Shown here: in pieces, positions 1,303 to 18,321 of the stretch
Position numbering within the stretch: the first letter of the stretch is position 1
How the letters are laid out: each line of letters starts with the position of its first letter
IMG/VR virus record: IMGVR_UViG_3300044653_000068
Location: 32,001 to 96,000 of that record
Source of the DNA: a virus
Strand: one strand, 5' to 3'
DNA: 64,000 nucleotides
Program-made: the position numbers and the translations under genes
Notes under the pieces: model-generated
Told to the model about the DNA's origin: nothing
What the model saw: only the letters and a program-made list of their open reading frames with translations
Database searches by the model: none

Positions 1303-1331
1303 GCGGCTACCGCCCTCCGGTCAGGCGGCTG

Positions 1332-1952
1332 CTAGTCGAGCGTTTCGACGAGCCACTCGGTGCAGGCGATCGTGCCGAACGCGGCCGACGAGGTGGCGGC
1401 CAGGCCGATTCCGGTCAGGGACGTGGTGTTGATGCCCAGGGCGGTCTCGCCTGAGATGTTCGGCATCGGCAGGATGATGGCGTTGCCGGTGCCCAGCGCC
1501 ACGGGGGCCCCGGGGACGGCCATGGGGATCTTGACCGAGCCCTGCGTCGAGACGCTGCCCGAGGTGCCGCTGCCGAGGGCCGTGCAGCGCATCAGCGCGT
1601 CCAGCTCCCACTGGAGCCCGGTGATCGAGCCGGTGCCCAGCGCCAGGGTGGTGGTGGTCGCGAACGTGGTCCAGGTGCCGGTGTTGCCCGCGTTGCACCG
1701 CAGCAGCCAGGACAGGTTGGAGGTGGTGCCGGCCGTGTTAACGTACCCGCGCGCCGTGACCCGGATCAGCATGCCCGAGTACCAGCCGAGGTACTGGCCG
1801 TCCGGGTTGACGGAGGCGACGTCGGTGTTGAGCCCGCCCGCCTGGCACGGCGAGATGGTGGCGGTGGAGGCCGAGGAGGTGAGCGCCGTTCCCGCGCCCG
1901 CCGCCCGCGCGCTGCCCGAGTTGATCAGGCTGACCCACTGCTGGTTGGCCAT
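1332..1952 (-). CDS. putative virion structural protein
   Basis: 206 aa, T/S/G/A-rich, GC-rich third codon positions, tightly packed operon. Confidence 0.7.
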   Translation of the reverse strand: MANQQWVSLINSGSARAAGAGTALTSSASTATISPCQAGGLNTDVASVNPDGQYLGWYSGMLIRVTARGYVNTAGTTSNLSWLLRCNAGNTGTWTTFATTTTLALGTGSITGLQWELDALMRCTALGSGTSGSVSTQGSVKIPMAVPGAPVALGTGNAIILPMPNISGETALGINTTSLTGIGLAATSSAAFGTIACTEWLVETLD

Positions 1953-1953
1953 A

Positions 1954-2217
1954 TCAGCACCCCCAGACCAGCAGGTAGCCGCTGTCGGAGGACAGCCCGG
2001 ACGGCATGGTGACCACGGTGCCGGTGAACGTGGCGGCGATCTCCACGAACTCCGACACGCCCAGCACGACGCCGCTCTTGACGATCAGGAAGCCGCTGAT
2101 GGTGGAGACGTCGATGGTGTCGCCCGTGCTGACCTTGGACAGCGCGAACAGGGCAACCTTGTCGGCGGCGCCGGCCGAGTACACGAGCGTGCAGTTGGCC
2201 GACGTGAGCGTCGCCAT
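1954..2217 (-). CDS. small putative virion protein
   Basis: 87 aa, GGAGG RBS, operonic. Confidence 0.7.
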   Translation of the reverse strand: MATLTSANCTLVYSAGAADKVALFALSKVSTGDTIDVSTISGFLIVKSGVVLGVSEFVEIAATFTGTVVTMPSGLSSDSGYLLVWGC

Positions 2218-2227
2218 GCGTCCTCCC

Positions 2228-2758
2228 CTAGACCGAGATGTTGAAGATCGCCGTGATCGCGGCGGAGGCGGGCGTGGCCCACAGGATCGTGAACGTGGCG
2301 GCGGTGACGGTCTGCGTGCCGCCGAAGTAGTTGAAGCAGATGCCCTGCTTGGACACCGTGCCGCCGGAGATGGTCGAGTCGTACACCAGCAGGCCGTAGA
2401 AGCCCGACAGGGTGACCGAGGCCGTCGAGGTCTGGCCCGCCGTGGGAGCTGTCACCTGGAAGCACAGGGACGACGAGCCGGTGTCGATGGTCCACGTCTT
2501 GGTGGTGCCGACTGACACGCCGCCGGCCGCCCAGTTGGTGCCGGTGATCTCGTTGCCGGTTACCCACTGGCCTGTGTTGTACCCGGTGTTGGCGAGGGTG
2601 TCGGCCTTGTTCGGGGTGCCGGAGTTGCCGAACGCCGCGCAGTTGATCGTGTCGCCCGTGAGGCTGACGAAAGAAGTGGGCGCGGTTCCCGCGTTGACGG
2701 CCCTGGCGATCGGGTTAAGCATCGCCTGCTGGAAGATCGCGCTGTTAGACCAGCCCAT
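2228..2758 (-). CDS. putative virion/tail protein
   Basis: 176 aa, NEITGTNWAAGG..LLVYD..FGGTQTVT pattern typical of actinophage minor tail proteins. Confidence 0.7.
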   Translation of the reverse strand: MGWSNSAIFQQAMLNPIARAVNAGTAPTSFVSLTGDTINCAAFGNSGTPNKADTLANTGYNTGQWVTGNEITGTNWAAGGVSVGTTKTWTIDTGSSSLCFQVTAPTAGQTSTASVTLSGFYGLLVYDSTISGGTVSKQGICFNYFGGTQTVTAATFTILWATPASAAITAIFNISV

Positions 2759-2842
2759 CGGGCTCTCCCTCGGTTGGCTCGGGCTCGACGGACCCGTGCG
2801 CGGCCGCCAGGTCCGCGAGAATGCGCACTTCAGGCTCGGTCA

Positions 2843-3169
2843 TCAGACTCGCAGCTCCCCGTGGGCCAGCCCCGCGTTGGCGGCCAGGTCGTTGCGGCCG
2901 TCCGCGTACTTCGTGATCACTGACATGTACGCCCTGCCGTCGTCTCCCATGGCCTGCTGGTCGCCGTTGAGGTAGTCCTCGCGCTCGACCGCCACCACCT
3001 CGCAGTCGGTGCCGGCCCGGACGAGGGGGGCGCTCAGCTGGTGCAGGCGCGGGCAGTTGTGGTAGCGGGTGGCGCCCGGCGGCATGGCGGGCAGCACCTC
3101 GGCGCAGTAGCACCCGTTAGGGCAGTACCACTCCTCGAAAGCCTGGCGCAGGATGGGCACATCGAACAT
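2843..3169 (-). CDS. conserved phage protein, Cys/His-rich
   Basis: WYCPNGC...YHNCP, EREDY motif. Confidence 0.7.
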   Translation of the reverse strand: MFDVPILRQAFEEWYCPNGCYCAEVLPAMPPGATRYHNCPRLHQLSAPLVRAGTDCEVVAVEREDYLNGDQQAMGDDGRAYMSVITKYADGRNDLAANAGLAHGELRV

Positions 3170-3173
3170 GCCC

Positions 3174-3482
3174 TCAGTGTAACGGCTTCACAGAGCCTGA
3201 GATAGTGGGGTCGAGCCTGGCCACGTCAGCTATCGTGGCCGCCGCCAGCTTATGGACGCCTGCCCCCAGGGAGTCGCGAAGCCCGCACAGAAGGCCCGCC
3301 CACTCCCCCAGCTGCGCGGGGGTGATGAACCCGGTCACGGTAGCCGAGTCCGTGCGCATGGTCACGCCGACCACGACCGGCTCGCCCGGCTTGGCGACGG
3401 TGCCGCACTCCAGGGTCACGGGACCGCCGGCCAGCAGTCGGTTGTTCGGGTCCAGCCACCGAAGGGAGTCCGGGGCGGTCAC
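3174..3482 (-). CDS. hypothetical protein
   Basis: GTG start overlaps the upstream TGA (GTGA). Confidence 0.6.
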   Translation of the reverse strand: MTAPDSLRWLDPNNRLLAGGPVTLECGTVAKPGEPVVVGVTMRTDSATVTGFITPAQLGEWAGLLCGLRDSLGAGVHKLAAATIADVARLDPTISGSVKPLH

Positions 3483-3715
3483 AGCCGGGCCCTCTCGCGC
3501 CACATCCGCCCGGCGGCGCGCTCCGCCAGCCCCACGATCTGCTCCTTCTGGGGGCGGGTGACGGCGCTCAGGTAGACGGACAGCTCACGCTGGCCCGAGG
3601 CGTGGCACAGGTCCCCGACGAGGCGGCCGAAGACCGCGCACTCCTCTTCCGTCAGCTCGGCGGTCTCGGCGTCGTACGTGAACCCGTTCATGATCCTCAT
3701 GCTAGCGGCCCTCAC
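3479..3715 (-). CDS. hypothetical protein
   Basis: coupled start/stop overlaps on both sides. Confidence 0.55.
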   Translation of the reverse strand: MRAASMRIMNGFTYDAETAELTEEECAVFGRLVGDLCHASGQRELSVYLSAVTRPQKEQIVGLAERAAGRMWRERARL

Positions 3716-4326
3716 ATCCGGACCTTGCGGGGACCGCGCGCCGGGGCAAGGCCGGCCGGCCGCAGGATGATCTCCCTGCGGATGGCGACGTCCAGGTTGT
3801 ACAGGCCCAGCGGGGTGACGTACCCCGGCCAGGTGCCCTCGAACAGATGGCAGCCCTCGTCGGAGTACGCCACGTCGCAGAGCTGGGAGCAGATCAGGTG
3901 CTTCGTGCTGGCGATGTAGCCCCGCAGGCCGGGCGCGGGGATGTGCAGCCGATGGCAGAACATCGCGCCGTAGTCGAGGAAGCTGTAGCCAACGCCGCCG
4001 GTGGAGGTCTTGTGCCCGGTGCCGGGGCCGTACTTCTGAACAGCGGCGCCCCAGATGTCAGCCAGCTTCTCCTCGGTGAACTGGGCCGCGATGGCGGTGC
4101 ACCAGTAGATCGTGTCGCTGTCGTACTCGCTGACGTTCGCTATCCGCGCGCCGCCGGGCTCGGCCTCCAGGACCGTCTCGTTCGGGCCGAGGAGGAGCGA
4201 GTGCTCCCAGTCCTTGAACCCCTGGCCGTTGAGGAACTCCCCGACCTTGATCAGCTTCCCGACGTCACCGGAGATCTGGGTGAGGCCGATGGTGCCGATC
4301 GCGGGGAGCGTCGCGGGAGTCGTCAT
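3712..4326 (-). CDS. permuted papain-like amidase (YaeF/YiiX, C92-like)
   Basis: His before Cys: WEHSLL..EAEPGG..GYSFLDY..LICSQLC; leaderless TAGGCT-N6-ATG. Confidence 0.7.
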   Translation of the reverse strand: MTTPATLPAIGTIGLTQISGDVGKLIKVGEFLNGQGFKDWEHSLLLGPNETVLEAEPGGARIANVSEYDSDTIYWCTAIAAQFTEEKLADIWGAAVQKYGPGTGHKTSTGGVGYSFLDYGAMFCHRLHIPAPGLRGYIASTKHLICSQLCDVAYSDEGCHLFEGTWPGYVTPLGLYNLDVAIRREIILRPAGLAPARGPRKVRM

Positions 4327-4335
4327 GGGGTCAGC

Positions 4336-4929
4336 CTACGACTTTCGCCAGGCTCCCCGGAAGATCCTCGCCGTGCCGTCAGGGGAGATGATGCAGTCGT
4401 CCACGACGGGCTGCCAGCCGAGAGCGCCGAGGTCGGTCTCCCAGGAGCCGCCCGCGAGGATCGCGCCGGGCTTCATGCTCGCGGTGATCAGGTCTTCCAG
4501 CTTCTTCTCGCGCTCGGCGTCGCGGAACGGCCGGTAGAGCCAGATGACGTCGGCGAGGGCGTAGATGCGCTCGATCGTGGGCAGCGTCAGCGCGTCGCCC
4601 CGGTAGACGTGCCCGTGGGCCCTGGCGGCGTTCGCCATCTTGGGGTCGATCTCGATGCCGTGCGGGATCAGGCCGAGCAGGTCCTTCGCGATCCTCAGCT
4701 TGGTGCCGGGACCGCAGCCCACGTCGAGGAACACGGGACCGCCGGCCTCGCCCATGACGTCCCACATGATGCCGAGGAAATCGGCCGGCTGCCACGGCAT
4801 CCACGGGTTGACAACCGGGTCGCGGCGGACGCCGAGCTTCAGGTGCTCGTACTCGGTCTCCGCGACCCAGTTGACGAGTCGCTGGACGCCTCCCGCGCGG
4901 GTCGTGCTGCCCGGTGTGTCGGGGATCAC
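4336..4929 (-). CDS. class I SAM-dependent methyltransferase
   Basis: FLDVGCGPG motif I, EID, GDAL, WLYRPF. Confidence 0.85.
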   Translation of the reverse strand: MIPDTPGSTTRAGGVQRLVNWVAETEYEHLKLGVRRDPVVNPWMPWQPADFLGIMWDVMGEAGGPVFLDVGCGPGTKLRIAKDLLGLIPHGIEIDPKMANAARAHGHVYRGDALTLPTIERIYALADVIWLYRPFRDAEREKKLEDLITASMKPGAILAGGSWETDLGALGWQPVVDDCIISPDGTARIFRGAWRKS

Positions 4930-5171
4930 TGCTGTCCTTCCTCGGTGTTATGCGGTGTAACACGCGTCTCAGGTCGGATCGTAGCCGGCCATTCCCCCGC
5001 CACCGCCCGCTCGAAAGCGGCCCTGAACTTCTCGACCTCCTCGTCGGTCAGGACGCGCTTCTCAGGCCAGGCCCAGGTCTCCAGCATGACCGCCTCGCCG
5101 ACCGGGAGATCCCACTCATAGGGATCACGCCTACGACGTGCCAGCCGGGCTCTCAGCCACCGCAGTATCAC
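4926..5171 (-). CDS. hypothetical protein
   Basis: GTGA overlap start; C-terminal part of track ORF 4926..5486. Confidence 0.5.
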   Translation of the reverse strand: MILRWLRARLARRRRDPYEWDLPVGEAVMLETWAWPEKRVLTDEEVEKFRAAFERAVAGEWPATIRPETRVTPHNTEEGQQ

Positions 5172-5410
5172 GCCCCTATCCCTCCTGCCGACCCGTTGGC
5201 CACCTTCGCGTCCGCGCGCACCAGCCTGTCCTGCTTGAATGCCTCCAGCACGTGAAAGTCTTCCTTGAAGTCGTAGCCCGCCAGGATCATCGAGATCATC
5301 GAGGCCTGGCCGCCGCTGATCCGCCTCACCTTGCCGTCCGGGAGCTTCACGTCGTAGCAGCCGGTGCTGAACGGCCCCTCGAAGCTGTGCTCCAGGAGAA
5401 TGACGGCCAC
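5168..5410 (-). CDS. hypothetical protein
   Basis: 80 aa, operonic. Confidence 0.6.
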   Translation of the reverse strand: MAVILLEHSFEGPFSTGCYDVKLPDGKVRRISGGQASMISMILAGYDFKEDFHVLEAFKQDRLVRADAKVANGSAGGIGA

Positions 5411-5628
5411 TACTGCGCTTCCGGGTCGTTCCCGCCGAACGGCTCGTCCGTGCCCCAGCGGCCGTAGGAGGTCGGACGCGGCTCATCGTCGTCGAAGGCC
5501 TCCTCGATATCGAGGGGGGCGAAGGGGTTCGGAGCCATCAGGGGCATGTAGTCCTCCGGCCGGTTGCCGCCCCGGGTCTCGGGCGGGGGAAGGCCCTCGT
5601 CAACGGGCTTAGGCTCGTGCCTGGTCAT
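5410..5628 (-). CDS. Pro/acidic hypothetical protein
   Basis: GAAAGGA RBS before ATG 5628. Confidence 0.6.
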   Translation of the reverse strand: MTRHEPKPVDEGLPPPETRGGNRPEDYMPLMAPNPFAPLDIEEAFDDDEPRPTSYGRWGTDEPFGGNDPEAQ

Positions 5629-5668
5629 GTGAGTTCCTTTCACGCGACTGCTTCCCCGCAACCTATCA

Positions 5669-5875
5669 CTAGAACACCCCTCCCTCGCCGAGGACGCCGT
5701 GCTGCGCTGCCAGGCGACGCTCGTACTCCTGCTTAACCGCCCAGGCAACATCCTGCTCCCCCTTGGTGGGCATCAGGGCGTAGCGCTCCTGCGTGATCAG
5801 ACGGTTCAGCGTCCGGTAGAGCATCGTCAGCTCCACATCGCCCAGTCCCCCGGCCCAGGAGTCGTCGAGGCTCAC
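5669..5875 (-). CDS. hypothetical protein
   Basis: 68 aa, coupled overlap. Confidence 0.55.
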   Translation of the reverse strand: MSLDDSWAGGLGDVELTMLYRTLNRLITQERYALMPTKGEQDVAWAVKQEYERRLAAQHGVLGEGGVF

Positions 5876-6051
5876 GAGACCAGGCCTTCCCTGCGCACCT
5901 CGGCCGCGACGAAGGCCGCGCAGGCGTCAGTGCCCCGCCAGCAGTCGAGGTCCCCGGTCTGGTTCCGCTCGCAGTACTCGCGCATGGCGCGGGCTATCAC
6001 CGCTGTCAAATCAGACCCCGCCACCAATAGGATCTTGTCGTCGAGGCTCAC
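5872..6051 (-). CDS. hypothetical protein
   Basis: GTGA overlap with the aminotransferase stop. Confidence 0.5.
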   Translation of the reverse strand: MSLDDKILLVAGSDLTAVIARAMREYCERNQTGDLDCWRGTDACAAFVAAEVRREGLVS

Positions 6052-7160
6052 GCTCGGAAGCTCCTGACTGCGGCGATGACCTGCTCCTGCTCGGGCTGGG
6101 TCATGGACGGGAACAGCGGGAGGGTGACGAGGGTCTGCCAGACGCGCTCGGTGACCGGGGTCTCGTTCGGCCAGCCGGTGTCGGGAAACAGGCTCTTGTA
6201 GTGGTTGAGCGGCTTGTAGTGAACGCCGGCCGAGACCCCGTTCGCGATCATGTGCCTGATGAAGTCCGGCCTGCGGTCGGCGGGAACGCGGACGACGTAC
6301 ATATGGGTGGCGCTGTTCCCGTCCACCTTGGGGGTCTTGAGCCAGGGCAGGCCGGACAGGTCGCAGTTGTAGATGGCCGCCTGGGCGCGACGCATGCTGT
6401 TGCGCTCGTCGAGCTTCCGGAGCTGCACCCGGCCGAGGGCGGCGGCGATGTCGTTCATGTGGGCCTTGAAGCCGTCGCCGGGGATGTCGTAGTCCCAGCC
6501 GTAGCCCACCCGCGAGTCCTTGTCCCGGTCCCAGGTGGACTTGTCGATCCCGCACCAGCGAAGTCGGCGGACCTCGGCGGCCACGTCCTCGTCGTCGGTG
6601 GTGACCATGCCGCCGTCCCCCGTGGCCAGGTTCTTGACCGCGTGGAACGACCAGGCTCGCGCATCACCGCGCCGACCGGTGAACTTCGAGCCGGCCGCGT
6701 GCGCGCAGTCCTCGATGATCGTGAACGCGTCGTGGATCGGCTTCGGGATGGAGACGCCTGTGCCCGCGCCCCCGTACCAGACCGGGACGATCCCCCAGTT
6801 GCCGTCCGGGAACTCGCACATCTTCTCGTAGGCATCTGTGAAGTCGATGCACAGATCAGTCTCGATGATGTCCGCGAAGACCACCTGGTTGCCCGCGTGC
6901 TGCATGGCCTGCGCCGAGGAGATGAAGGTGAGCGCCGGAACGACGACGATACCGCCCGTGAGCCCGGTTGCGCGGGCGGCCAGCTCCAGGGCGGCGGTGG
7001 CGCTGCTGACGGCGACGGCGAACCTGGAGCCCGTGTAGGCGGCGAACTCGGCCTCGAACTTCTCCGTCTCCGGTCCCTGCCCCCACCAGCCGGAGCGCAG
7101 GACGCGGGTGACCGCCTCAATCTCCTCGTCGCCGCAAACAGGGCGAAACAGGGGAATCAT
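6048..7160 (-). CDS. DegT/DnrJ/EryC1/StrS PLP-dependent sugar aminotransferase
   Basis: SSATAAL, IIEDCAHA, SFHAVKNLATGDGG (PLP lysine), GVHYKP, TLPLFP. Confidence 0.95.
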   Translation of the reverse strand: MIPLFRPVCGDEEIEAVTRVLRSGWWGQGPETEKFEAEFAAYTGSRFAVAVSSATAALELAARATGLTGGIVVVPALTFISSAQAMQHAGNQVVFADIIETDLCIDFTDAYEKMCEFPDGNWGIVPVWYGGAGTGVSIPKPIHDAFTIIEDCAHAAGSKFTGRRGDARAWSFHAVKNLATGDGGMVTTDDEDVAAEVRRLRWCGIDKSTWDRDKDSRVGYGWDYDIPGDGFKAHMNDIAAALGRVQLRKLDERNSMRRAQAAIYNCDLSGLPWLKTPKVDGNSATHMYVVRVPADRRPDFIRHMIANGVSAGVHYKPLNHYKSLFPDTGWPNETPVTERVWQTLVTLPLFPSMTQPEQEQVIAAVRSFRA

Positions 7161-7735
7161 GCGTCCTTCTTCCTGAGCATCGCCATGCCGTAGATGTAGC
7201 GGGCTTCCACCGCGTCCTCCGGCCGGCCGGCCGGGACGTGCGCGCCGCCCATGTCCGTGATGTCCGTCGCGGGCCTGATGCGCTCGATGAACGCTTGCGC
7301 CAGGGTCACCATCGACGTCCCGAAGTGCCCGTGGAACGGGTTGGACGGCAAGCCCACCGGCCAGTCCTCAAGCACGTACCAGCCGCCCGGCTTCACCAGG
7401 GGCCAGAGATTGCCGAACGTGATCTCCGACAGGCTGCCGACATGGGAGGCGTCGTCCACGATCAGGTCGTAGGGCCCGAACGGCATGACCAAATCCGGCA
7501 GCCCCGGGTCAGCCTGGTCGGCCTGGATGTGCACAACCCCGAGCGGCAGGCCCTCCGGCTTGCTCAGGTCCACGCCGACGATGACGCCCTCAGGCGCGAG
7601 ATCGCGCCACAGGAACAGCGACCCGCCGTGGGCGGTGCCGATCTCCAGGATGCGCGCGGCGCGGTTGCCCCCGAGCAGCTCCCTGTAAACGGGGGCGTAC
7701 CCGAGGGTGCCCTTGTCCGTCGTAGGCTCGCTCAT
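7157..7735 (-). CDS. SAM-dependent (sugar O-)methyltransferase
   Basis: ILEIGTAHGGS, LIVDDASH, KPGGWYVLEDW (MycE/Methyltransf_24-like). Confidence 0.85.
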   Translation of the reverse strand: MSEPTTDKGTLGYAPVYRELLGGNRAARILEIGTAHGGSLFLWRDLAPEGVIVGVDLSKPEGLPLGVVHIQADQADPGLPDLVMPFGPYDLIVDDASHVGSLSEITFGNLWPLVKPGGWYVLEDWPVGLPSNPFHGHFGTSMVTLAQAFIERIRPATDITDMGGAHVPAGRPEDAVEARYIYGMAMLRKKDA

Positions 7736-8247
7736 TTCGGCGGCACATCCAGCCAGTACCCGTCGTAGCTGCGGCTCATGATCAGGTAGTGGCCCTTCTC
7801 GCCGAGGATGTTCTCGTAGACGTCGGCGGTGTGCCCGCCCTCCGTGAAACCGTTGCCCTTGTGGAACGCGATGGTGCGCTCGTTGTCGGGCATGACCCGC
7901 AGCCAGTAGTAGTCGAGGCCGTAGGCGCTCATCAGCCGCCGCATCCCCTGCCGCATGAAACCGCCACGGGCGAGCGCCTTATCCCCGAGCATCATCCGCT
8001 CCAGCTCGCCGCCGCCGTGCCTGATCGTCATGCCCACGGTGCCGATGGGCTCGCCGTCCCGGAGCACGAGGTACAGGTTCTGCGAGGGGTCGGCCAGGTA
8101 CGTGCCGTGGTACCAGTCGTAGTGCCCGCTAAGAGTGAACGGCGGCTGCCTCGGGAACCAGCGGGCATTGTCCGGGTCATTGCGCCAGGCGACAAGGCGG
8201 GGAGCGTCGTCGGCGGTGATCTCCCGGAGAGTCACTTCATCGGTCAT
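7732..8247 (-). CDS. GNAT N-acetyltransferase (PseH-like)
   Basis: WRNDP..H..W, PIGTVG, V..DNERTIAFHKGNGF; ATG 8247 with RBS. Confidence 0.85.
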   Translation of the reverse strand: MTDEVTLREITADDAPRLVAWRNDPDNARWFPRQPPFTLSGHYDWYHGTYLADPSQNLYLVLRDGEPIGTVGMTIRHGGGELERMMLGDKALARGGFMRQGMRRLMSAYGLDYYWLRVMPDNERTIAFHKGNGFTEGGHTADVYENILGEKGHYLIMSRSYDGYWLDVPPK

Positions 8248-8255
8248 GCTTCTCC

Positions 8256-9044
8256 TCAGTGAGCGTCGTGCCTGGACCAGGCTGACAGCGGGGTCCAGCG
8301 GTGGGTGACGAGATAACGGGGGATAGGCCAGAACGGGAACCTCCCGACGAGGCGCTCCAGGAATATGCCGTCCGAGTGGCGGGCGATGGAGCCCTCCGGG
8401 TTCTCCTCGAAGTACGGGTAGGCCAGAGCGTCCAGGCACGTCTTGTGGTACATGACCTGGCCGCCGTCAATGCGGCAGTCTACGCTGCCGGGGAACATCT
8501 TCGGGTCCAGGGCCGGGATGCCGATGTCCGGCCAGGGACCGCAGTCCCCGGGCCCCGTGGGCGAGCCGTGGCGAAGAGAGCAGTAGACGACCCGGTAACC
8601 GGGGTTGGCGTCCAGTTCGCCGGCCATTATCTCCAGGCAGTCCGGGTCGAGCAGATCGTCGTCTGACAGGTGGAGGAGGTACTTCCCGTTCGCCTCCGGG
8701 TAGTAGACGTTCGGCAGCCAGCACGCGATGTACGTCTCACGGCGCTTCTTCTCAATCTCCTCCCCCTCCAGGCGCTCGTACTGCACCGAGCAGCCATCGG
8801 GAACCAGGCCCATGGCCTCCCAGCTCGCCAGCTCGTTCATGACCATGGCGTTCGTCACGTCATCGTTAGAGTTCTCCAGAATCCACAGCTCCCAGTCGGC
8901 CATGGTCTGATCGCGCACGCAGCGCATGGCGTCCAGCACGTACGCGCCCTTGTTATAGGACAAGATGAACACCGAGACCTTCGGTCCCTTGTGCTCGGGC
9001 TCGGGCTCGGCGGGTCGCGTCAGGGTCTGGCTAGTGAGGACCAT
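8256..9044 (-). CDS. glycosyltransferase family 2 (SpsA-like)
   Basis: VSVFILSYNK, QTMADWEL, GKYLLHLSDDD. Confidence 0.9.
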   Translation of the reverse strand: MVLTSQTLTRPAEPEPEHKGPKVSVFILSYNKGAYVLDAMRCVRDQTMADWELWILENSNDDVTNAMVMNELASWEAMGLVPDGCSVQYERLEGEEIEKKRRETYIACWLPNVYYPEANGKYLLHLSDDDLLDPDCLEIMAGELDANPGYRVVYCSLRHGSPTGPGDCGPWPDIGIPALDPKMFPGSVDCRIDGGQVMYHKTCLDALAYPYFEENPEGSIARHSDGIFLERLVGRFPFWPIPRYLVTHRWTPLSAWSRHDAH

Positions 9045-9296
9045 CTACGGTTCGCGCCACCCTAGTTCGAGAAGCCGCAGATGCTCGGCGTCCAGGTGCC
9101 GCTCTGGCTCCAGCTCGACCACGATCCTGCCATCGGCGGTGAAGAACCGCTGCTTGACCGGTACGCAGCACCAGTCTTCGGCAAGGTCCACCAGATCCCC
9201 CGGAATGGGCAGCACGGGGTACTCGCGCTCCGTGGTGAACTGGCGCGGCCCGCGCTGCACGTCGCCGTAGCACTGCTGCCGGATCTCTACCTTCAC
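9045..9296 (-). CDS. hypothetical protein
   Basis: 83 aa, operonic. Confidence 0.55.
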   Translation of the reverse strand: MKVEIRQQCYGDVQRGPRQFTTEREYPVLPIPGDLVDLAEDWCCVPVKQRFFTADGRIVVELEPERHLDAEHLRLLELGWREP

Positions 9297-9387
9297 AGGT
9301 CACTTCCTCTTCACGAGCTGGTCTACGTTGACGCCGTTGCGCTCCAGCCAGTTGAGCGTGGCATACGGTGAGTTGAGATCGTTCGGG

Positions 9388-9433
9388 TATGCCCTACCTT
9401 GCCCCGCCGTGCCAGACCTGGCCGAACCTGACC
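9388..9433 (-). repeat. GGYNN pentamer tandem repeat (x9)
   Basis: minus strand GGTCA GGTTC GGCCA GGTCT GGCAC GGCGG GGCAA GGTAG GGCAT. Confidence 0.7.
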
Positions 9434-9441
9434 CAGTGCGC

Positions 9442-10523
9442 TCAGACTAGTCCGTCTTTATAGGCCCATCCCACGGGGAACAGCATCTTGTAGGCGTCGG
9501 CCCATTCCCGCCAGTGGCCCTCGATCGTGTTCCTCCGGGCCTTCTCCTTCGCGGCCGCGCCCATCTTCAGCCGCAGGGCCTCGTCGCCGGCCAGCTCGGA
9601 CAGGAAGCTGAGCCACTCGTGCTCCCGCTTCACCAGGAAGCCGTCCACGCCGTGGTCGATGAAGCGCCGGTAGGGCTCCACGTCGCTGGCGACGACGGGC
9701 GTCCCGCGCGCCATGTACTCCAGGGCCTTGATCCAGGACTTGGACCTGCTGAACTGGGTGTCGAGCAGCGGGCAGATGCCGATGTCGAAGTCGATGGCCC
9801 GGTAGAAGACGTCGGGGTAGTCGCTGACGTGAATCCACGGGATGTGGAACGAGCGGCCCGGCGGGCAGCCGAACTTGTCCCTGTAGTCAACGCCGGACAC
9901 GAACAGGTCCCACTGCGGGAAGCGCTTCATGAACCGGCGGACCGCGCCCGTCGCCATCGTGACGTCGCGGGCGTGCGAAGCGCCGCCCTGCCAGCCGATC
10001 CGGGGCCTGTCCCGCCGGTCGTCGTGCCCGAGGCCCAGGACGAACTCGGGGACGTAGTTGGGCAGCACCACGACGGGCACCCGGCCCCCGGTCAGCTCGC
10101 GCGTCCAGTCGCCGAGGTGCGGCGAGGACGTGGTGACCAGGTTCGCGGTGGTGCAGTAGCGCAGCACGGCCTCGCGGGTCTCGCCGCCCTCGGCGTAGCT
10201 CTTGTACGCCGCCGCGTTCTCCGGGGTGATATTCCAGATATCGTCATCGTTTTCGTAGACGGTTCGGCACGTCGGCGTGGCCCAGCGCCGCCAGACCCCC
10301 AGCCCCTCGAACGCGTTGGACCGCTGCGACACGATCACGTCGGCCTCGGCTGCGTCGGTCAGCAGGAGCTGCTCGTGCTGTTCCTGCATCAGCTTCGGGC
10401 CGCCGGACCGGAAGGTGACCTTCACATCACCGGAGTGCTCGTTGACCGCCGTGAGGGGGACGAGCATGCGATACCAAGTAAAGCGCACCCGGAGCCGCCA
10501 TCGTGGCTGGCGAAGACTCTCAC
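9442..10523 (-). CDS. GT-B (GT4-like) glycosyltransferase with a frameshift near the 5' end
   Basis: YENDDD, IGWQGGASH, DIGICPL..FSRSKSWIKALEY; N-terminus VRVFASHDGGSGCA (GTG 10523) is out of frame with WYRML... Confidence 0.85.
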
Positions 10524-10581
10524 GGGTGCAAACTCACCAGCGCGGTCACTGCACCCTCCGGAAGTAAAGTACGATACCGAC

Positions 10582-11121
10582 GTGCTCAAGCTACCACTTA
10601 CCGAGGAAGTCTACACACGGATCGACGACGCGGACCTGCTGCTGGTATCCGGCTTCCCCTGGCGTCCGCTGATTACGAAGACTAACAGTCAAGTCACGTA
10701 CGTTCACGCCTGGAACAACAGGCAGAGTGTGTACATGCATCGACTGATCGTCGGCGCCGGCCCGCGAGAGCTAGTTGACCATTCGGACGGAGACGGGCTT
10801 AACAACCAACGCTGGAACCTGCGCACGGCGAACCCGAACCAGTCACAGGACAACCGGGGCAAGCAGCGTAACGGCCGCACCTCGCAGTACAAGGGCGTCT
10901 TCTGGGATAAGTCCCGAAACCGCTGGGCCGCCACCATCCATCACGAGCACCGCACCCGCGCACTCGGTCGTTACCAGGCGGAAGAGGACGCAGCCCGCGC
11001 CTACGACGAGGCAGCCATTGCGCTGTTCGGCAGTTTCGCCCGGCTGAACTTCCCGACCGAGAACGGCGTCGTCTGCCTGCGGCATCAGATGGCCGTGCCC
11101 GATGCGTTCTGCGCCTGCTAG
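10582..11121 (+). CDS. HNH-AP2 homing endonuclease (freestanding)
   Basis: YMHRLI..VDHSDGDGLNNQRWNLR; AP2 motif SQYKGV.W..RW.A.I..LG.Y..EEDAARAYD; leaderless TACGAT-N6-GTG. Confidence 0.92.
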   Translation: MLKLPLTEEVYTRIDDADLLLVSGFPWRPLITKTNSQVTYVHAWNNRQSVYMHRLIVGAGPRELVDHSDGDGLNNQRWNLRTANPNQSQDNRGKQRNGRTSQYKGVFWDKSRNRWAATIHHEHRTRALGRYQAEEDAARAYDEAAIALFGSFARLNFPTENGVVCLRHQMAVPDAFCAC

Positions 11122-11124
11122 GCG

Positions 11125-11583
11125 CTACCCCGGGGCGGGCAGGGCCAGCGACACGGCTAGGACGGCGCCGAAGATCAGCAGGAAGATGCCGAGCGTGCCG
11201 CCCAGCTCCGTCCAGAAGCCGTGCTTCGCGCACGCCTGGGCCCGCATCACCCCGACGACGATCCCGATCAGCAGGCAGACGACGCCCATCAGCGCCAGGG
11301 CGGGCGCGCCGCGCGCGAACAGGAACGGGACCGCCGGGGCGATGCCCCCGGCCGCCGTGGCGAGGCCCATGACGGCCGAGGGCCACAGGCCGTTGTCAGA
11401 GTCGCTCAGGTACTCGTTCCCGGCCATGGACAGCGCGGCGGAGATCGCGCCGGACAGGGCGGCCGGGAAGATGAGGCGCTCGTCCCCGAGGAGGTAGAGC
11501 ACCACGCCCACGATCGACATGCAGCCGTCGCCCAGTCCGAAGATGGCCGGCCGGAACAGGGGCGCGGTGCTTTTCCCCGTCAC
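11125..11583 (-). CDS. VIT1/CCC1-family transporter-like membrane protein
   Basis: RPAIFGLGDG..S..GV, A.SMAGNEYLS, P.VPF; about 5 TM helices. Confidence 0.8.
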   Translation of the reverse strand: MTGKSTAPLFRPAIFGLGDGCMSIVGVVLYLLGDERLIFPAALSGAISAALSMAGNEYLSDSDNGLWPSAVMGLATAAGGIAPAVPFLFARGAPALALMGVVCLLIGIVVGVMRAQACAKHGFWTELGGTLGIFLLIFGAVLAVSLALPAPG

Positions 11584-11587
11584 ACGG

Positions 11588-12337
11588 CTACTTCGCGAGC
11601 AGGCTCAGGTCGCCCTGGAGGGCCGCCAGGTTGACGCCGTGGCCGTCGAGCCCGGACGCCGGGACCTCGCCCCAGATGCACGCCCAGGCCTCGGTGGACA
11701 TGAGGTGCCAGGCGCTGTACTGGATCGCCTGGATTCCGCCCCAGGTGACGATGTACAGGTTGTCGCTGTCGTAGCCGACGATCGGCACGCAGTGGCCGCC
11801 CTCGACGTTCCCGTTCTGGAAGGTCGCCGCCGTCCACGGCTCGCCGTCCTGGAACGCCTCCATCATCAGGTCGGTGACCCGGATGCCGGTGTAGGCGTAG
11901 CCGTAGGCGTCAACCGCGAACTGGAGGGTCGCCATGTCGCGGATCGAGACCGGCGCGTAGGCGGCCAGGGTGCGGCCGAACCAGCCGGTCTTCTTCACGT
12001 AGGCGAGGAAGTCCGCGAGCACGACGCCGTTGTCCTCGCCGCCCGTGTAGGCCAGGTAGTACTGGACGATCTCGTCGTCTGTGACAGCGGCCAGCGCGGT
12101 GTGCGACTCCAGGTCCACGGTCATCTCGCCGTGATTGACGCCCGCGACGCCGCAGTCGCCGTACTGGTCGTTGCCGTCCATGCCCCAGGCGGTGCCATCG
12201 GAGGCCTCCGGCGGGACGGGGGGCGTGACGCTCAGGGGAGCGGCGGGCAGCGCGCCGGCCACGTACCAGGTCAGGTCGCGGAGACCGTTCGGGACGTGGC
12301 CGGGAAGACAGCCCAGCTTGAGGTTCGAGTGCGTCAT
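11588..12337 (-). CDS. papain-like (C1-type) cysteine protease
   Basis: GNDQYGDCGVA (Cys), GGHCVPIVGYD (His), YIVTWG. Confidence 0.8.
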   Translation of the reverse strand: MTHSNLKLGCLPGHVPNGLRDLTWYVAGALPAAPLSVTPPVPPEASDGTAWGMDGNDQYGDCGVAGVNHGEMTVDLESHTALAAVTDDEIVQYYLAYTGGEDNGVVLADFLAYVKKTGWFGRTLAAYAPVSIRDMATLQFAVDAYGYAYTGIRVTDLMMEAFQDGEPWTAATFQNGNVEGGHCVPIVGYDSDNLYIVTWGGIQAIQYSAWHLMSTEAWACIWGEVPASGLDGHGVNLAALQGDLSLLAK

Positions 12338-12388
12338 TGTCCGCCTCTTCACTTGTGATCCGATGTCACGGAACAGGCTAGCCCGCGA

Positions 12389-12664
12389 TCAGGTCTGACG
12401 CCATTTTCCTGGGCCGTCCGGGAAACGCGCGTGCGCCTTGCCGTCATGGCCGACGTCCGTGCCGGAATTGCCGTCAATCGACGGCCAGCCCTGGTGGTCG
12501 GCCAGGGTGTGACGGCCGTCCGTGGCGTTGTAGTTCTCGTGCGGGGTCGGGTTGGCCTCGCGGCTGCCGACGTGCGGCTCGGTGACCGCGCCCTCGGCGT
12601 CCGCCGCGATCGGCTTGACGTTGTGCTCGACCGGCTTCTCGACCGGTCCCCACGTGTGTGCCAT
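12389..12664 (-). CDS. hydrophilic, probably disordered protein
   Basis: GGGAG RBS, 91 aa H/P/G/D-rich. Confidence 0.6.
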   Translation of the reverse strand: MAHTWGPVEKPVEHNVKPIAADAEGAVTEPHVGSREANPTPHENYNATDGRHTLADHQGWPSIDGNSGTDVGHDGKAHARFPDGPGKWRQT

Positions 12665-12678
12665 TGACTTGCTCCCTG

Positions 12679-12933
12679 TCAGGTGATCGCGGTGGCGTCG
12701 TACGCGTAGACGGGCTGCGTCGCGCTGCCGAACGTGAAGCCCGTGGTGCACTTCACCAGGACGTTCGCGAACAGGATCGGCGAGCCGATCGCGGGATAGG
12801 GGGCCTGCGCCGTGGCGAGCCCGTTGAGCATGTTGTTGCACGCGTCAAGGGACGGGGCGTAGACCGAGTTGCCGGTCGCGGCCTGGATCGCGGCGGCGGT
12901 CGTAGCAGCCGATGCTCCCGTTGTGTATGCCAT
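12679..12933 (-). CDS. putative virion protein, single copy of a repeat domain
   Basis: AGGA RBS; YTTG...PILFANVLVKCTTG...PVYAY. Confidence 0.7.
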   Translation of the reverse strand: MAYTTGASAATTAAAIQAATGNSVYAPSLDACNNMLNGLATAQAPYPAIGSPILFANVLVKCTTGFTFGSATQPVYAYDATAIT

Positions 12934-12944
12934 TGTCCTGTTCC

Positions 12945-13358
12945 TTAGCTAGGGCTGGTCGAGTACTCGAAGACGGGACTGGTAGTGGCGTTCCACCCGC
13001 TCGTGCACTCCACGAGGACGCCCCACAGTGTGATGGCGGAGCCCTGCCTCCAGGCGAGCGAGTGCAGCACGGCGGAAGCCTGGTCCGCCAGCGCCCCGGC
13101 GGTCACCAGCGCGGCGGCGGTCTGCGCCAGGGTCTTGCCGGTCTGCGTGAAGCTGGGCGTGATGTCGTACTCCCACACCGCGTCGCCGGGGTTGTTCCAC
13201 CCGCTCGTGCACTGGACGAGGACGCCCCACAGGGTGACGGGGTTGTTGGGCTTGTGCCCGGCGGAGGCGAGCGAGGTGAGCGCCTGGTCCATCAGCGCCC
13301 CGGCGGTGACCAGGACTGCGGCCATCTGCGCGGTGGTGCGGCCGGTGGTGAAGCCCAT
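12945..13358 (-). CDS. putative virion protein, two tandem repeat domains
   Basis: internal duplication LVTAGAL.DQA...TLWGVLV.CTSGWN...V.EY...PS. Confidence 0.75.
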   Translation of the reverse strand: MGFTTGRTTAQMAAVLVTAGALMDQALTSLASAGHKPNNPVTLWGVLVQCTSGWNNPGDAVWEYDITPSFTQTGKTLAQTAAALVTAGALADQASAVLHSLAWRQGSAITLWGVLVECTSGWNATTSPVFEYSTSPS

Positions 13359-13681
13359 TAGTGCATCCCCTTCCAGGTGCGCTGCGGCGAGCCCATACCG
13401 GGCCCGTACTCGGCGGACTCGGGCACGTCCACGTCGAGGTTCTTATCGGTGACGGCCTCGGGGCCGGGCAGGTCGGCGGGGCTCTGCTCGTTGCCGAAGT
13501 CCGTCATCGTGGCCATCACGACGTCGTGCACGGCCTCGGAGTCCGAGCCTCGGCCGGCGAAGTTCGGGTCCTTCTTGGTGATCATGTTGCCGCCGGCCAT
13601 CGACGCGTCGTACGCCGGGAAGTGCTGGTTCTCGGGCAGGTTACTCAGGTCGTGCGTCGTCGGCTTCACCGGGAACGTCAT
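13358..13681 (-). CDS. acidic, probably disordered protein
   Basis: GGAGG RBS, 107 aa. Confidence 0.65.
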   Translation of the reverse strand: MTFPVKPTTHDLSNLPENQHFPAYDASMAGGNMITKKDPNFAGRGSDSEAVHDVVMATMTDFGNEQSPADLPGPEAVTDKNLDVDVPESAEYGPGMGSPQRTWKGMH

Positions 13682-13835
13682 CGCCGGGCACCTCCTGTCG
13701 CGGCTGGTCTGCGGACGGGGTGAGGACGGCCTCGGGCGGCATGCCCTCGCCGTGGTCGTTGCGGCCGGCGAACGGCCCGAAGGCCCCGATGTGCGCGGGG
13801 TTCACGGGCCAGGGGGCCGGGCCGACCGTCTTCAC
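13641..13835 (-). CDS. Pro-rich small protein
   Basis: 64 aa, fills an operon gap. Confidence 0.45.
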   Translation of the reverse strand: MKTVGPAPWPVNPAHIGAFGPFAGRNDHGEGMPPEAVLTPSADQPRQEVPGDDVPGEADDARPE

Positions 13836-13838
13836 GGC

Positions 13839-14429
13839 TTACCGGCCCGCGTTCGGGTTCCCGGCCGGGCGCGGCTGGGTACCGGAGTCCATGGCGTCGG
13901 GGTGGCCCGCGCCCCGGACGGAGCCGGAGCCGATGCCCGTGCTGACCGGGCGGTTGCCTTCCAGCGCCGGGAGGGTGGCGCCGCCGGCGTAGCCCTGGTC
14001 GTTGGCCTGGGTCCAGTCGCCGATGCCGTCGATGTGAGCGGCGGTGGTGACATCGCGGTTGACGCCGCCCATGATGCCGAACGGGTCGGTGTACGTCACG
14101 GTGTCCGGTCCGGCGTTCTGGTTGGACGCGCCCGGCGAGCCGTGCAGGCCCGTGTCGGTGATCTCGTCGCCGGTGACGTACGAGAGGCCGTCGTCGAGCT
14201 GGCCGGGCTGCACCGTCACGTCGGACGAGTGCCTCCCCGGGGGCGTGGAGCCGTGCGCGCCCGTCGAGTAGGACTGGGCGAAGCCGAAGATGTCGGGAGG
14301 GGTCTGCCCGTTCTGCTCAGTGGGGTCGAGGCCCGCACCGCCGTGACCCTGGCGTGCCGGGGCCGGAGACTGGCGCTGGGGGGTAGCGCCCTGGCGGCCG
14401 GGGTTCGTCCCGTCGTTGACAGTAGCCAT
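13839..14429 (-). CDS. G/D/T/P-rich low-complexity protein
   Basis: GAAAGGA RBS, own TACACT -10 upstream. Confidence 0.7.
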   Translation of the reverse strand: MATVNDGTNPGRQGATPQRQSPAPARQGHGGAGLDPTEQNGQTPPDIFGFAQSYSTGAHGSTPPGRHSSDVTVQPGQLDDGLSYVTGDEITDTGLHGSPGASNQNAGPDTVTYTDPFGIMGGVNRDVTTAAHIDGIGDWTQANDQGYAGGATLPALEGNRPVSTGIGSGSVRGAGHPDAMDSGTQPRPAGNPNAGR

Positions 14430-14495
14430 AGCGATGAAGTCCTTTCACAGTTCCTTCACGCCCAGTGTAAGGCTCTATCGCAGCTTGGGGTAGGG

Positions 14496-14963
14496 CTAGT
14501 CCTCTTCCCCCAGTCTGGCCCCATATCTACTCATCAAATCGGCCTTGGACATCTCCTCGGCGCGCTCGATGGTGATCGCCGGGCAGCCCTTGATCCCGCT
14601 CATCTTCACGGCGTAGTCGGCCCACGCGGACTTGGGGGCGTTGCCGTACGGGCGCTTGGGCTCAACGGGAGCCTCCGGCACTCCCGCGACCTCGGGAACG
14701 GGCTGGCCGTCCGGCTCGTGACCGGGGTCGTTCCAGTCCTGCCCCGTGGCGGTCTTGTATGTCTCCGCCAACCGCTCCGCCTCCTGCGCCTCCAGCTCGG
14801 CGCGGGTCGGGCCGACCTCCTGCGGGGGACCGACGTACTCGCCGAGCTTATTGTGGACCGCGAAATCCGCCGTCGCGTCGTCGAGCGTGAGTTCCGAGCC
14901 CTTGTCCGCGACGATGCGCGGCCGGTCCATCTTGACGGCGGTGGTGAACTTTACCCGGCGCAT
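14496..14963 (-). CDS. conserved actinophage post-capsid protein
   Basis: GAGGAG RBS; C-terminal helical motif P..NAPKSAWADYAV...AEEMSKADLM. Confidence 0.7.
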   Translation of the reverse strand: MRRVKFTTAVKMDRPRIVADKGSELTLDDATADFAVHNKLGEYVGPPQEVGPTRAELEAQEAERLAETYKTATGQDWNDPGHEPDGQPVPEVAGVPEAPVEPKRPYGNAPKSAWADYAVKMSGIKGCPAITIERAEEMSKADLMSRYGARLGEED

Positions 14964-14982
14964 GCGCTGCTCCTCTTAAACG

Positions 14983-15021
14983 GCGAAATCCCCCACCAGC
15001 GTAGCTGATGAGGGATTTCGC
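14983..15021 (-). terminator. stem-loop downstream of the capsid gene
   Basis: GCGAAATCCC...GGGATTTCGC inverted repeat. Confidence 0.65.
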
Positions 15022-15046
15022 ACGGTCCCCGTGGACCGAGGCGAGC

Positions 15047-16423: not shown

Positions 16424-16497
16424 TGTTTTTCCTCTCGTGTGAAGAGAATCAACACTGGCTCCGGCGCGGTGCGCACGGCCTCAGACGTTCAACATCA

Positions 16498-16526
16498 AGA
16501 CTAAGGGCGGCTGTGAAGTCGTGCAA
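16498..16526 (-). promoter_or_regulatory. promoter of the capsid gene
   Basis: TTGCAC-N17-TAGTCT, near-identical to the promoter at 18087-18115. Confidence 0.75.
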
Positions 16527-16543
16527 CACGTCGTGAGAAGAAA

Positions 16544-16644
16544 TCCCCCGGCGGGACTCGAACCCGCACGCCATCTCAGCCCGTATCTCGGCTTGTCGTC
16601 CCGAAGGACTCCTCTAGGGTCTTGCCTTTTGCCTCGACGGGGGA
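16544..16644 (-). ncRNA. tRNA-like RNA lacking a canonical anticodon arm
   Basis: 7-bp acceptor TCCCCCG/CGGGGGA, T-arm GCGGG-TTCGAGT-CCCGC, internal GTCC-TTCG-GGAC hairpin. Confidence 0.65.
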
Positions 16645-16650
16645 AGTTCT

Positions 16651-18048: not shown

Positions 18049-18086
18049 CGCGTTACGTCCTTTCACGGACAAGAGTGTTCACGTCC

Positions 18087-18120: not shown

Positions 18121-18321
18121 TCAGGTATCGGAGACGACGAACATTCCGGCGCCCTGGGCGTACAGGAACAGGTCGCCCTCGGCCCTTTCGACGCGAAAGC
18201 GGTCGCCGAGCTTGAGCAGGCCGGCCTGGGAGGCCGTGTGCACCGCGCGCTCGTAGGGCACGCCCTCGTTGATGAGGCGCGACTGGATGGTGTCACCCTG
18301 GATTACGCCGGGCCACTGCAT
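18121..18321 (-). CDS. hypothetical protein
   Basis: TAATG coupling with the portal stop. Confidence 0.6.
   Translation of the reverse strand: MQWPGVIQGDTIQSRLINEGVPYERAVHTASQAGLLKLGDRFRVERAEGDLFLYAQGAGMFVVSDT

Follow-up and report, generated by a model that had tools for sequence, protein, structure and literature searches.

What are enzymes for making and transferring an amino sugar doing among the genes that build a phage particle? The question is raised by a 64,000-nucleotide stretch of DNA (hereafter the window), bases 32001-96000 of the 115,256-bp IMG/VR record IMGVR_UViG_3300044653_000068, the genome of an uncultured soil phage, of about 68% GC and estimated to be 98% complete. In the window five genes at 6048-10523, which encode a GT-B glycosyltransferase (GT), a second GT of the GT2 type, a GNAT N-acyltransferase, a methyltransferase and a DegT-type aminotransferase, lie on the minus strand between the genes for the major capsid protein and the head-tail adaptor. 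A sequence-only reading of the window had picked out this cluster and had proposed that the phage makes its own methylated N-acetyl amino sugar to coat its capsid or tail. We find all five genes there, intact, co-oriented and with Pfam family matches, and we consider it probable that they belong to a cytoplasmic system, encoded by the phage, by which the proteins of its own particle are glycosylated late in infection. In the best reading of the sequences the glycan would include a host-primed, phage-tailored N-acyl-4-amino-4,6-dideoxyhexose, and this phage would most likely sugar-coat its own particle more elaborately than the mycobacteriophages, whose systems consist of transferases only.

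The enzyme assignments of the sequence-only reading held up in Pfam and structure-matching searches, and PHROG matches agree with those to Pfam (coordinates and family scores are in Table 1). The DegT protein covers profile positions 4-360 of 360 of PF01041 (cut-off 19.8 bits) and matches ArnB (1mdo) with an E value of 1e-54; its SFHAVKN segment aligns with SFHAIKN of ArnB, which we take to carry the lysine (Lys188) that binds pyridoxal 5'-phosphate (PLP), and the upstream IEDcAHA motif is kept. By this retained Schiff-base lysine motif it is predicted to be an aminotransferase and not a ColD/E1-type dehydratase, which has a histidine. Among the NCBIfam models PseC (TIGR03588, 244.4 bits against a cut-off of 423.5) and ArnB (NF008658, 226.4 against 631) score best and WecE-, DesI- and LegC-type enzymes are the runners-up, all of them under their equivalog cut-offs; nearly all of these DegT relatives aminate C-4 of a nucleoside diphosphate (NDP)-4-keto sugar. 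The GNAT open reading frame (ORF) was listed as 7732-8439, which overlaps the GT2 gene by 184 nt, but translation really begins at the ATG at 8247, which a GAGGAG ribosome-binding site precedes by five bases and the GT2 stop codon by 8 nt. Its best NCBIfam match is PseH (TIGR03585), at 37.3 bits against a cut-off of 93.1 so that the equivalog score is not reached, and a profile built from eight family members matches SpeG (E 4e-12) and Campylobacter jejuni PseH (E 4e-11) about equally well, and AAC(6') in addition.

The nearest solved structure to the GT2 protein is SpsA (1h7l, E 1.8e-13), and a DDD motif is present in the segment HLSDDDLL; no homologue was found in 50,697 cultured phage records. 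We presume it to be the amino-sugar transferase because it is co-inherited with GNAT and DegT (below). The Methyltransf_24 enzyme (MT24) has as its nearest structures the macrolide-sugar O-methyltransferases MycE (3ssm, E 5.8e-16) and TylE (8ia9, E 1.6e-11), and with MycE it is the catalytic core alone that aligns (residues 24-127 with 215-328 of the 419-residue 3ssm chain), the auxiliary N-terminal domain not being covered. It is also 31-37% identical to mycobacteriophage methyltransferases, of which the one in McProf adjoins a GT. The first gene of the cluster encodes a GT4-type enzyme (PF00534 34 bits and PF13692 36 bits, both over the cut-off; phrog_7162, E 1e-36), whose AlphaFold2 model (pLDDT 87.7, pTM 0.88) has the two-Rossmann GT-B fold. 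When this model was ranked against folds in the PDB, SdgB, the O-GlcNAc transferase of Ser-Asp-repeat proteins, came first, followed by BshA, MshA, TreT, PimA and GtfA, with TM scores of 0.55-0.66. None of the cluster's enzymes has a transmembrane segment (maximum KD19 hydrophobicity is below 1.6 for all of them). An Arn-like reading (ArnB, an ArnC-like GT2 and N-acylation) was rejected: the GT2 is soluble and SpsA-like, there is no ArnA or ArnT, and relatives carry an RmlB-like dehydratase.

Could the gene arrangement be an artefact of assembly? The DegT/MT24, MT24/GNAT and GNAT/GT2 junctions are spanned by near-identical contigs (zero to few mismatches) from other soil metagenome studies, which rules this out. 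These contigs are short and of low depth and were used solely for the gene junctions; many short-sided joints in the mapped contigs were set aside as cross-mapping from relatives.

The DegT enzyme would need a keto sugar, and where might this come from? The sequence-only reading saw no dehydratase in the window, and this is true of the whole 115-kb record, in which the Epimerase, GDP_Man_Dehyd, Polysacc_synt_2 and NTP_transferase models find neither a dehydratase nor a nucleotidyltransferase at E<=0.1 (the same four models gave matches in 14 of 14 control genomes). Nor did tblastn with the short-chain dehydrogenase/reductase (SDR) proteins of relatives find a remnant of a degraded dehydratase in this genome. 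A host-made NDP-4-keto sugar would therefore be needed. The host NDP-4-keto-6-deoxyhexose that had been proposed as the substrate fits the relatives, where an RmlB-like dehydratase, nearest to dTDP-glucose 4,6-dehydratases (6bi4, E 1.6e-39), stands directly beside the same DegT gene.

The missing dehydratase lends itself to another explanation, that the amino-sugar branch has been orphaned in this phage: the dehydratase would have been lost, DegT and GNAT would be idle or act on some other host metabolite, and the GTs and methyltransferases would use common host NDP-sugars. It is true that SDR dehydratases or reductases or nucleotidyltransferases accompany DegT in the relatives L002, L004, L005, L059 and L061 and are absent here. 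Yet the ORFs are intact, with a coding-type GC content at third codon positions (GC3) and the PLP lysine kept; soil metagenomes from other studies contain near-identical copies; another relative (L064) has the same order GT4-GT2-GNAT-MT24-DegT, free of a dehydratase within the available sequence; and RmlB products are common host metabolites. We regard an orphaned branch as quite unlikely.

The glycosylation that we favour might proceed as follows. The host would supply the NDP-4-keto-6-deoxyhexose, most likely dTDP-4-keto-6-deoxy-D-glucose from its RmlA and RmlB because the phage genome has neither a dehydratase nor a nucleotidyltransferase; DegT would aminate C-4 with PLP; and GNAT would N-acylate the new amine, giving an NDP-4-acylamino-4,6-dideoxyhexose. 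The soluble SpsA-like GT2, always inherited with GNAT and DegT, would then transfer the N-acyl amino sugar, the capsid-proximal GT4 and a further GT-B enzyme encoded beside the tail-tube gene (below) would start or extend the glycan on protein, and the MycE-like MT24 and a second methyltransferase (MT2, below) would methylate sugar residues.

How does the position of these genes bear on their role? All genes of the window from 1 to about 29000 are on the minus strand, and to the left of the window the operon continues with the rest of an 815-residue Ser/Thr-rich protein, the head-tail adaptor (phrog_442), a 145-residue tail-tube protein (matches to phrog_10528 and phrog_1407) and a 1472-residue protein in the tape-measure position. 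The cluster thus lies inside the virion operon, as had been thought, with head genes upstream and the Ser/Thr-rich genes, adaptor and tube downstream; the order is capsid, connector, sugar island (the cluster and the genes that travel with it), Ser/Thr-rich proteins, adaptor, GT-B and tube. This last GT-B gene is immediately upstream of the tail-tube gene. It has no PHROG family, and in five of five near-complete relatives a homologue with 46-53% identity again stands directly before the tube gene. Its model (pLDDT 76) is best matched by the folds of GtfC and Gtf3, two glycosyltransferases of Ser-rich adhesins, and of generic GT-B enzymes. The best folds of the two GT-B enzymes thus include protein O-GTs of Ser-rich proteins (SdgB, GtfA, GtfC and Gtf3), in support of protein as the acceptor.

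Genome-wide searches with PF13524 and PF00535 detect three GTs, every one in the structural operon and none elsewhere. A third GT-like gene that the sequence-only reading placed at 55629 is not among them: the gene at 55629-56285 (minus strand) has no Pfam or NCBIfam match and is not recognisable as a GT; language-model features (score 0.98) point to the viral DUF8361 family, which it resembles. It lies in the replication region near the family-A DNA polymerase gene (58689-61235), and this uncharacterised DUF8361 gene is one of two points in favour of DNA hypermodification, in which the sugar would be placed on modified phage bases for restriction evasion. The other is that phage GTs can decorate DNA with diverse glycans, for which a passage of PMC12619734 cites Pyle et al. 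2024. Against this, the genome has no ThyA-like pyrimidine hydroxymethylase (PF00303 absent at E<=0.1), and the three recognisable GTs are all in the structural operon with none in the replication module. A role in DNA modification is very improbable.

If particle proteins are the acceptors, which ones carry the sugar? The capsid protein here ends in ...FKGGAS and the tube protein in ...GIAGT. The tube protein C-terminus is G-T in six of six genomes, and among 51 distinct capsid protein tails of the family 29 have a terminal Ser or Thr and 39 have one within the last four residues; for comparison, 18% of the ORFs of this genome end in Ser or Thr. The Che8 capsid and tube proteins (gp6 and gp11) end in ...NKTGS and ...YSDGS, and those of Corndog (gp41 and gp49) in ...PLVGS and ...IKGDS. 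Glycans are located at the C-termini of the Che8 and Corndog capsid and tube subunits according to a passage of PMC12619734 that cites Freeman 2023. By this analogy the most likely acceptors are the last residues of the two chains, Ser in the capsid protein and Thr in the tube protein. The four most Ser/Thr-rich proteins of the genome (25-27% Ser plus Thr against a median of 11.5%) are encoded downstream of the island, and these head-side proteins are alternative candidate acceptors. The largest, of 815 residues, has about 12 repeats of the type GLATGTGAA(GGISQAAN), which derive from 54-nt tandem repeats, and weak DUF4082 and BppU_N signals; its gene is directly before the adaptor gene.

Is the arrangement peculiar to this phage? 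A search with the capsid protein found at least 246 related IMG/VR stretches, of which 80 were examined, and the proteins of this phage together with extra genes from the relative L002 were mapped to the related loci, among which 39 distinct contigs had at least 5 kb of sequence after the capsid gene. The synteny is kept in these related phages: at least one GT homologue follows the capsid gene in 35 of the 39, invariably co-oriented with it, and the content varies. GT4 is present in 25 of the contigs and is the most widely kept in the family of this phage's island genes; a second type of GT2 occurs in 28, an RmlB-like dehydratase in 10, other SDRs in 15, DegT in 10, GT2 plus GNAT in 7, MT24 in 8 and MT2 in 10 (inside the island every time). 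The adaptor gene starts 16.2 kb beyond the capsid stop codon in this genome, and in five near-complete relatives it does so at 9.5-14.9 kb. The island therefore has a fixed address and variable content, and behaves like a "virion glycan type" locus. In the relative L002, for example, it consists of GT4, an ORF without an assignment, GT2, GNAT, MT24, an SDR, the second type of GT2, DegT and the dehydratase.

The second methyltransferase, which had been noted at 4336 as lying elsewhere, has a weak profile match; it carries the SAM (S-adenosylmethionine) motif LDVGCGPG and accompanies the island in relatives, islands without DegT included. A small ORF, g5410, is likewise kept inside the relatives' islands; L039 and L041 have it with 61-76% identity, flanked by the dehydratase and MT2. 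MT2 and g5410 belong to the island (L039, L041, L054 and L058), which therefore exceeds the 6048-10523 first given to it: the five enzymes are there, and the island is larger, reaching at least to MT2, with the further GT beside the tube gene outside the window.

The block GT2-GNAT-(MT24)-DegT is found in eight contigs of the family, this one included. Metagenomic homologues of the DegT protein with identities of 52% and above number more than 100, several of them on contigs of about 113-118 kb; the best homologue in a bacterial genome is 48% identical, and the closest of these are scattered over the Candidate Phyla Radiation (CPR), Planctomycetota, Acidimicrobiia and others. An unrelated viral contig (L006; 35% GC, with an SU10-type capsid gene) has, all co-oriented, the capsid gene, a second DegT, two oxidoreductases, a GT2 and a methyltransferase, then homologues of GT2-GNAT-DegT, and three more GTs. 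Since the three homologues stand in the same order, the three-gene module appears to move as a unit, again behind a capsid gene. The sugar island of this contig (2087-16316, about 12 kb) holds two DegT genes, FAD and GFO/IDH oxidoreductases, a methyltransferase, a GNAT, four GT2-like genes and one GT4, the last of which also matches the "GT4-conflict" Pfam model.

This co-inheritance speaks to the idea that the island is a mixed bag: auxiliary genes without relation to one another, whose products would act on small molecules or on proteins that are not part of the virion, with GNAT, for example, as a polyamine or aminoglycoside acetyltransferase. The GNAT profile does match SpeG and AAC(6') besides PseH, and two papain-like proteins and several ORFs without an assigned function are interleaved with the sugar genes. 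But GT2, GNAT and DegT are inherited together as an adjacent block in the eight family contigs and in the unrelated phage, and in relatives sugar-nucleotide SDRs have been added to the same block, and we give a mixed bag little credence.

The constant site bears equally on host-envelope remodelling, in which the enzymes would alter a cell-wall or capsular polysaccharide or a lipid-linked precursor, for instance as a block to superinfection or an aid to release. GT2, GT4 and DegT/GNAT pairs are typical of bacterial surface-polysaccharide loci, lipid-linked intermediates can serve soluble GTs, and the closest bacterial DegT homologues are in the genomes of several phyla. Set against this, all island enzymes are predicted to be soluble, and no flippase, polymerase, ligase or polyprenyl-phosphate GT was seen with the island. 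As regards Gtr-type or other lipid-linked serotype conversion, there is no membrane GT among the island enzymes and no tyrosine integrase was found in the genome (serine integrases were not searched for), so that lysogenic conversion is not indicated. Moreover, a large family and an unrelated lineage both have the island at one constant site, between the capsid and neck genes, and a further GT adjoins the tube gene, which is unlike conversion modules. We therefore judge envelope remodelling to be unlikely.

The known precedents for glycosylation of the particle itself are instructive. Virion O-glycosylation in the mycobacteriophages Che8, Corndog and Myrna is attributed to Freeman et al. 2023 (Cell Host Microbe 31:1216) in passages of PMC11600133, PMC12363180 and PMC12619734. 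As in these phages, the GTs here are phage-encoded soluble enzymes linked to virion genes, with all three in the morphogenesis operon. The last residue of the capsid and tube subunits is, again as in Che8 and Corndog, a hydroxy amino acid that follows small ones. The comparison with mycobacteriophages made in the sequence-only reading is strengthened by these ends, by the kept position of the island and by the conserved GT beside the tube gene. In Corndog, genes 35-38 of the structural operon, which stand between the protease gene and the portal-side genes, encode an O-methyltransferase and three GTs, and islands of GTs plus a methyltransferase in virion operons are therefore already known. 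In contrast to the mycobacteriophage systems, the present island follows the capsid gene, has a further GT at the tube gene, and adds a sugar aminotransferase and an N-acyltransferase (with a dehydratase and other SDRs in relatives), that is, tailoring of nucleotide sugars. In our search of the literature we came across no paper in which the glycosylation of phage virions includes an aminotransferase/N-acyltransferase branch.

Among cultured phages, GT4 finds its closest homologues (33-35% identity) in the Streptomyces phages KimJongPhill and Zuko (Zukovirus), genes 4-6, where the GT gene comes after those for a methyltransferase and an SDR and directly before the terminase and virion genes. 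The SDR is 41% identical to the RmlB-like dehydratase of the relative L002. Unlike the present island, these clusters have no DegT, GNAT or GT2 and precede the terminase gene instead of following that for the capsid protein, and neither the capsid nor the tube protein of these phages ends in G-S/T. KimJongPhill gene 4 (L033:1199-2251) is labelled "UDP-glucose dehydrogenase"; given its 41% identity over 355 residues to the L002 SDR, this annotation is probably wrong.

Mimivirus synthesizes viosamine and bacillosamine for the glycans of its fibres with its own dehydratases, and the glycans have been solved by nuclear magnetic resonance. The present phage would resemble the giant viruses, in which amino-sugar glycan synthesis is reviewed in PMC9614988, in encoding a DegT-type 4-aminotransferase, an N-acetyltransferase and GTs for 4-amino-4,6-dideoxyhexose derivatives of its own particle. 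It differs from these eukaryote-infecting viruses, as a tailed phage without a dehydratase, and from both them and the mycobacteriophages in being known from its sequence alone. ArnB of the UDP-L-Ara4N pathway and PseC and PseH of the pseudaminic acid pathway include the best sequence relatives of DegT and GNAT, but neither pathway is recognizable here: there is no ArnA, ArnC or ArnT and no PseB-type (PF02719) dehydratase (the family searches did not include PseG, PseI and PseF), the GT2 unlike ArnC is SpsA-like and soluble, and relatives pair DegT with an RmlB-like dehydratase. The bacterial cytoplasmic GTs SdgB, GtfA/GtfB and GtfC/Gtf3, which attach sugars to Ser and Thr of proteins, are the best or near-best folds (SdgB and GtfA for GT4, GtfC and Gtf3 for the tube-adjacent GT-B), at TM scores of 0.55-0.65 and identities of 10-19%, with MshA, BshA and PimA scoring similarly. 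The DUF1975-type acceptor domain of SdgB and GtfA is absent from GT4, since those targets have about 500 residues and GT4 has 348.

Several considerations weigh against glycosylation of the particle and belong beside the evidence for it. The phage is uncultured and its system is known from genes alone. The GT4, the GT2 and the tube-adjacent GT-B have no blastp similarity (E<=0.01) to Che8 gp108-110 or Corndog gp36-38. The GT-B fold matches are generic, MshA, BshA and PimA scoring about as well as the protein O-GTs, and among solved structures GNAT is as near to polyamine acetyltransferases as to PseH. ArnB and PseC, the nearest characterised relatives of DegT, use UDP-sugars, so that the true substrate may differ in nucleotide and sugar from the one proposed above, and without the relatives' dehydratase the amino-sugar branch is host-dependent or could be idle. 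A terminal Ser or Thr on the capsid protein is common and not universal (the 29 of 51 above), and soluble GTs can also act on lipid-linked envelope intermediates. With regard to the methylated N-acetyl amino sugar on capsid or tail that was first proposed, the enzymes and their placement agree with it, and the identity of the sugar, its methylation and its destination are what we infer. The observation is confirmed and its interpretation as a whole is partly supported.

A wider generalization may be put forward tentatively, as one that could well prove too broad: a widespread family of uncultured soil phages of 100-200 kb may carry a "virion glycan type" locus, hypervariable but fixed in its site between the capsid gene and the neck genes, together with a conserved tube-gene transferase, and its members may build different glycans, some from self-tailored N-acyl amino-dideoxy sugars, on the terminal Ser or Thr of every capsid and tube subunit. 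To our knowledge virion glycosylation has been demonstrated in only a few mycobacteriophages, by transferases (and one methyltransferase in Corndog), and it is discussed there as shielding from antibodies. If the generalization is true, phages tailor their own nucleotide sugars by amination, N-acylation and methylation, virion glycosylation reaches a large soil phage lineage without a cultured member, and the phage surface is diversified, in the manner of O-antigens, in a setting free of antibodies. A locus with changing content in a constant place would point to selection for surface diversity that has nothing to do with animal immunity. It might be driven by a need to withstand proteases, to adhere to host glycans or the soil matrix or keep clear of them, or to escape surface decoys of the host. 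The island would also offer soluble enzymes for making rare amino sugars and attaching them to a defined C-terminal tag.

Table 1. Features of the virion operon in and beside the window, in the order of transcription within the window; coordinates are those of the window unless a prefix is given
Feature	Coordinates	Strand	Evidence
Terminase large subunit	21937-23619	-	PHROG search
Portal	18321-20120	-	PHROG search
Protease	16651-18072	-	PHROG search
Major capsid protein, 458 residues	15047-16423	-	phrog_10, E 7e-52
Head-tail connector protein	14496-14963	-	phrog_2322, E 7e-11
phrog_19005 protein, conserved gene upstream of island	11588-12352	-	phrog_19005, E 4e-22
Small membrane protein, VIT1-N-terminal-like domain	11125-11583	-	PF01988, E 2.6e-9
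GT4-type GT-B glycosyltransferase, 348 residues, first island gene	9442-10488	-	Glyco_trans_1_4, Glycos_transf_1, Glyco_trans_1_2 above cut-off
83-residue ORF between GT4 and GT2	9045-9296	-	coding-type GC3 0.84
SpsA-like GT2, GT-A fold, predicted soluble	8256-9044	-	PF00535 36.5 bits vs cut-off 23.3
GNAT N-acyltransferase, 171 residues, SpeG/PseH-like subgroup	7732-8247	-	Acetyltransf_3 53.9 bits
Methyltransf_24 SAM methyltransferase (MT24)	7157-7735	-	PF13578 28.1 bits vs cut-off 26.3
DegT/DnrJ/EryC1-family PLP-dependent sugar 4-aminotransferase	6048-7160	-	PF01041 279.9 bits
Small ORFs, two or three	5669-5875, ~5410-5630, 5168-5410	-	sequences only
Second class-I SAM methyltransferase (MT2)	4336-4929	-	Methyltransf_25/11 E 2e-4 to 1e-3, below cut-off
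Permuted papain-like amidase (Peptidase_C92 / NlpC-P60 type)	3712-4326	-	Atlas structure match TM 0.71/0.89 to YaeF/YiiX C92 family
Three Ser/Thr-rich proteins, 25-27% Ser plus Thr	2228-2758, 1954-2217, 1332-1952	-	composition ranking
N-terminal 434 residues of 815-residue Ser/Thr-rich protein, 25% Ser plus Thr	1-1302; whole gene L031:14855-17302	-	composition ranking
Tube-adjacent GT-B, 358 residues, outside window	G000:C1:26221-27297 = L031:10221-11297	-	Glyco_trans_1_2 E 1.2e-16 (Pfam)

The remaining genes in and around the island are listed in Table 1 with those discussed above. The 83-residue ORF has no family match in PHROG, Pfam or NCBIfam. Two distinct papain-like proteins bracket the island, at 11588-12352 and 3712-4326, and could be virion-associated wall hydrolases or take part in acceptor processing. 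The first, whose gene is just before GT4 in relatives too, has no Pfam match and is papain-like by eye from its Cys/His motifs (GDCG...GGHC). The second is probably not a sugar enzyme; a weak PHROG label of "enoyl-CoA hydratase-like" was dropped in favour of the C92 permuted papain fold, and PDB sequence searches with this protein and with MT2 gave nothing informative. The VIT1-like gene sits within the head module and is kept in L002, L042, L059 and L061, and its product is the sole predicted transmembrane protein near the island, with one strong segment (maximum KD19 hydrophobicity 2.84).

A scan of window positions 1-17000 for promoters and terminators gave nothing exceeding shuffled expectation. 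A megablast search of the cluster against cultured phages found no match, and no cultured phage was found with a capsid protein more than about 30% identical. In two relatives, homologues of the Ser/Thr-rich protein g2228 (2228-2758) are found directly upstream of the capsid gene and not on the far side of the island, at L051:1352-1882 (80% identical) and L052:3022-3549 (98% identical), which suggests that head-module genes are shuffled between otherwise diverged phages (their capsid proteins are about 57% identical). Three tRNA genes are present on the minus strand of the window: Ala-GGC at 26838-26910, Met-CAT at 27977-28052 and Ile-GAT at 62019-62091.

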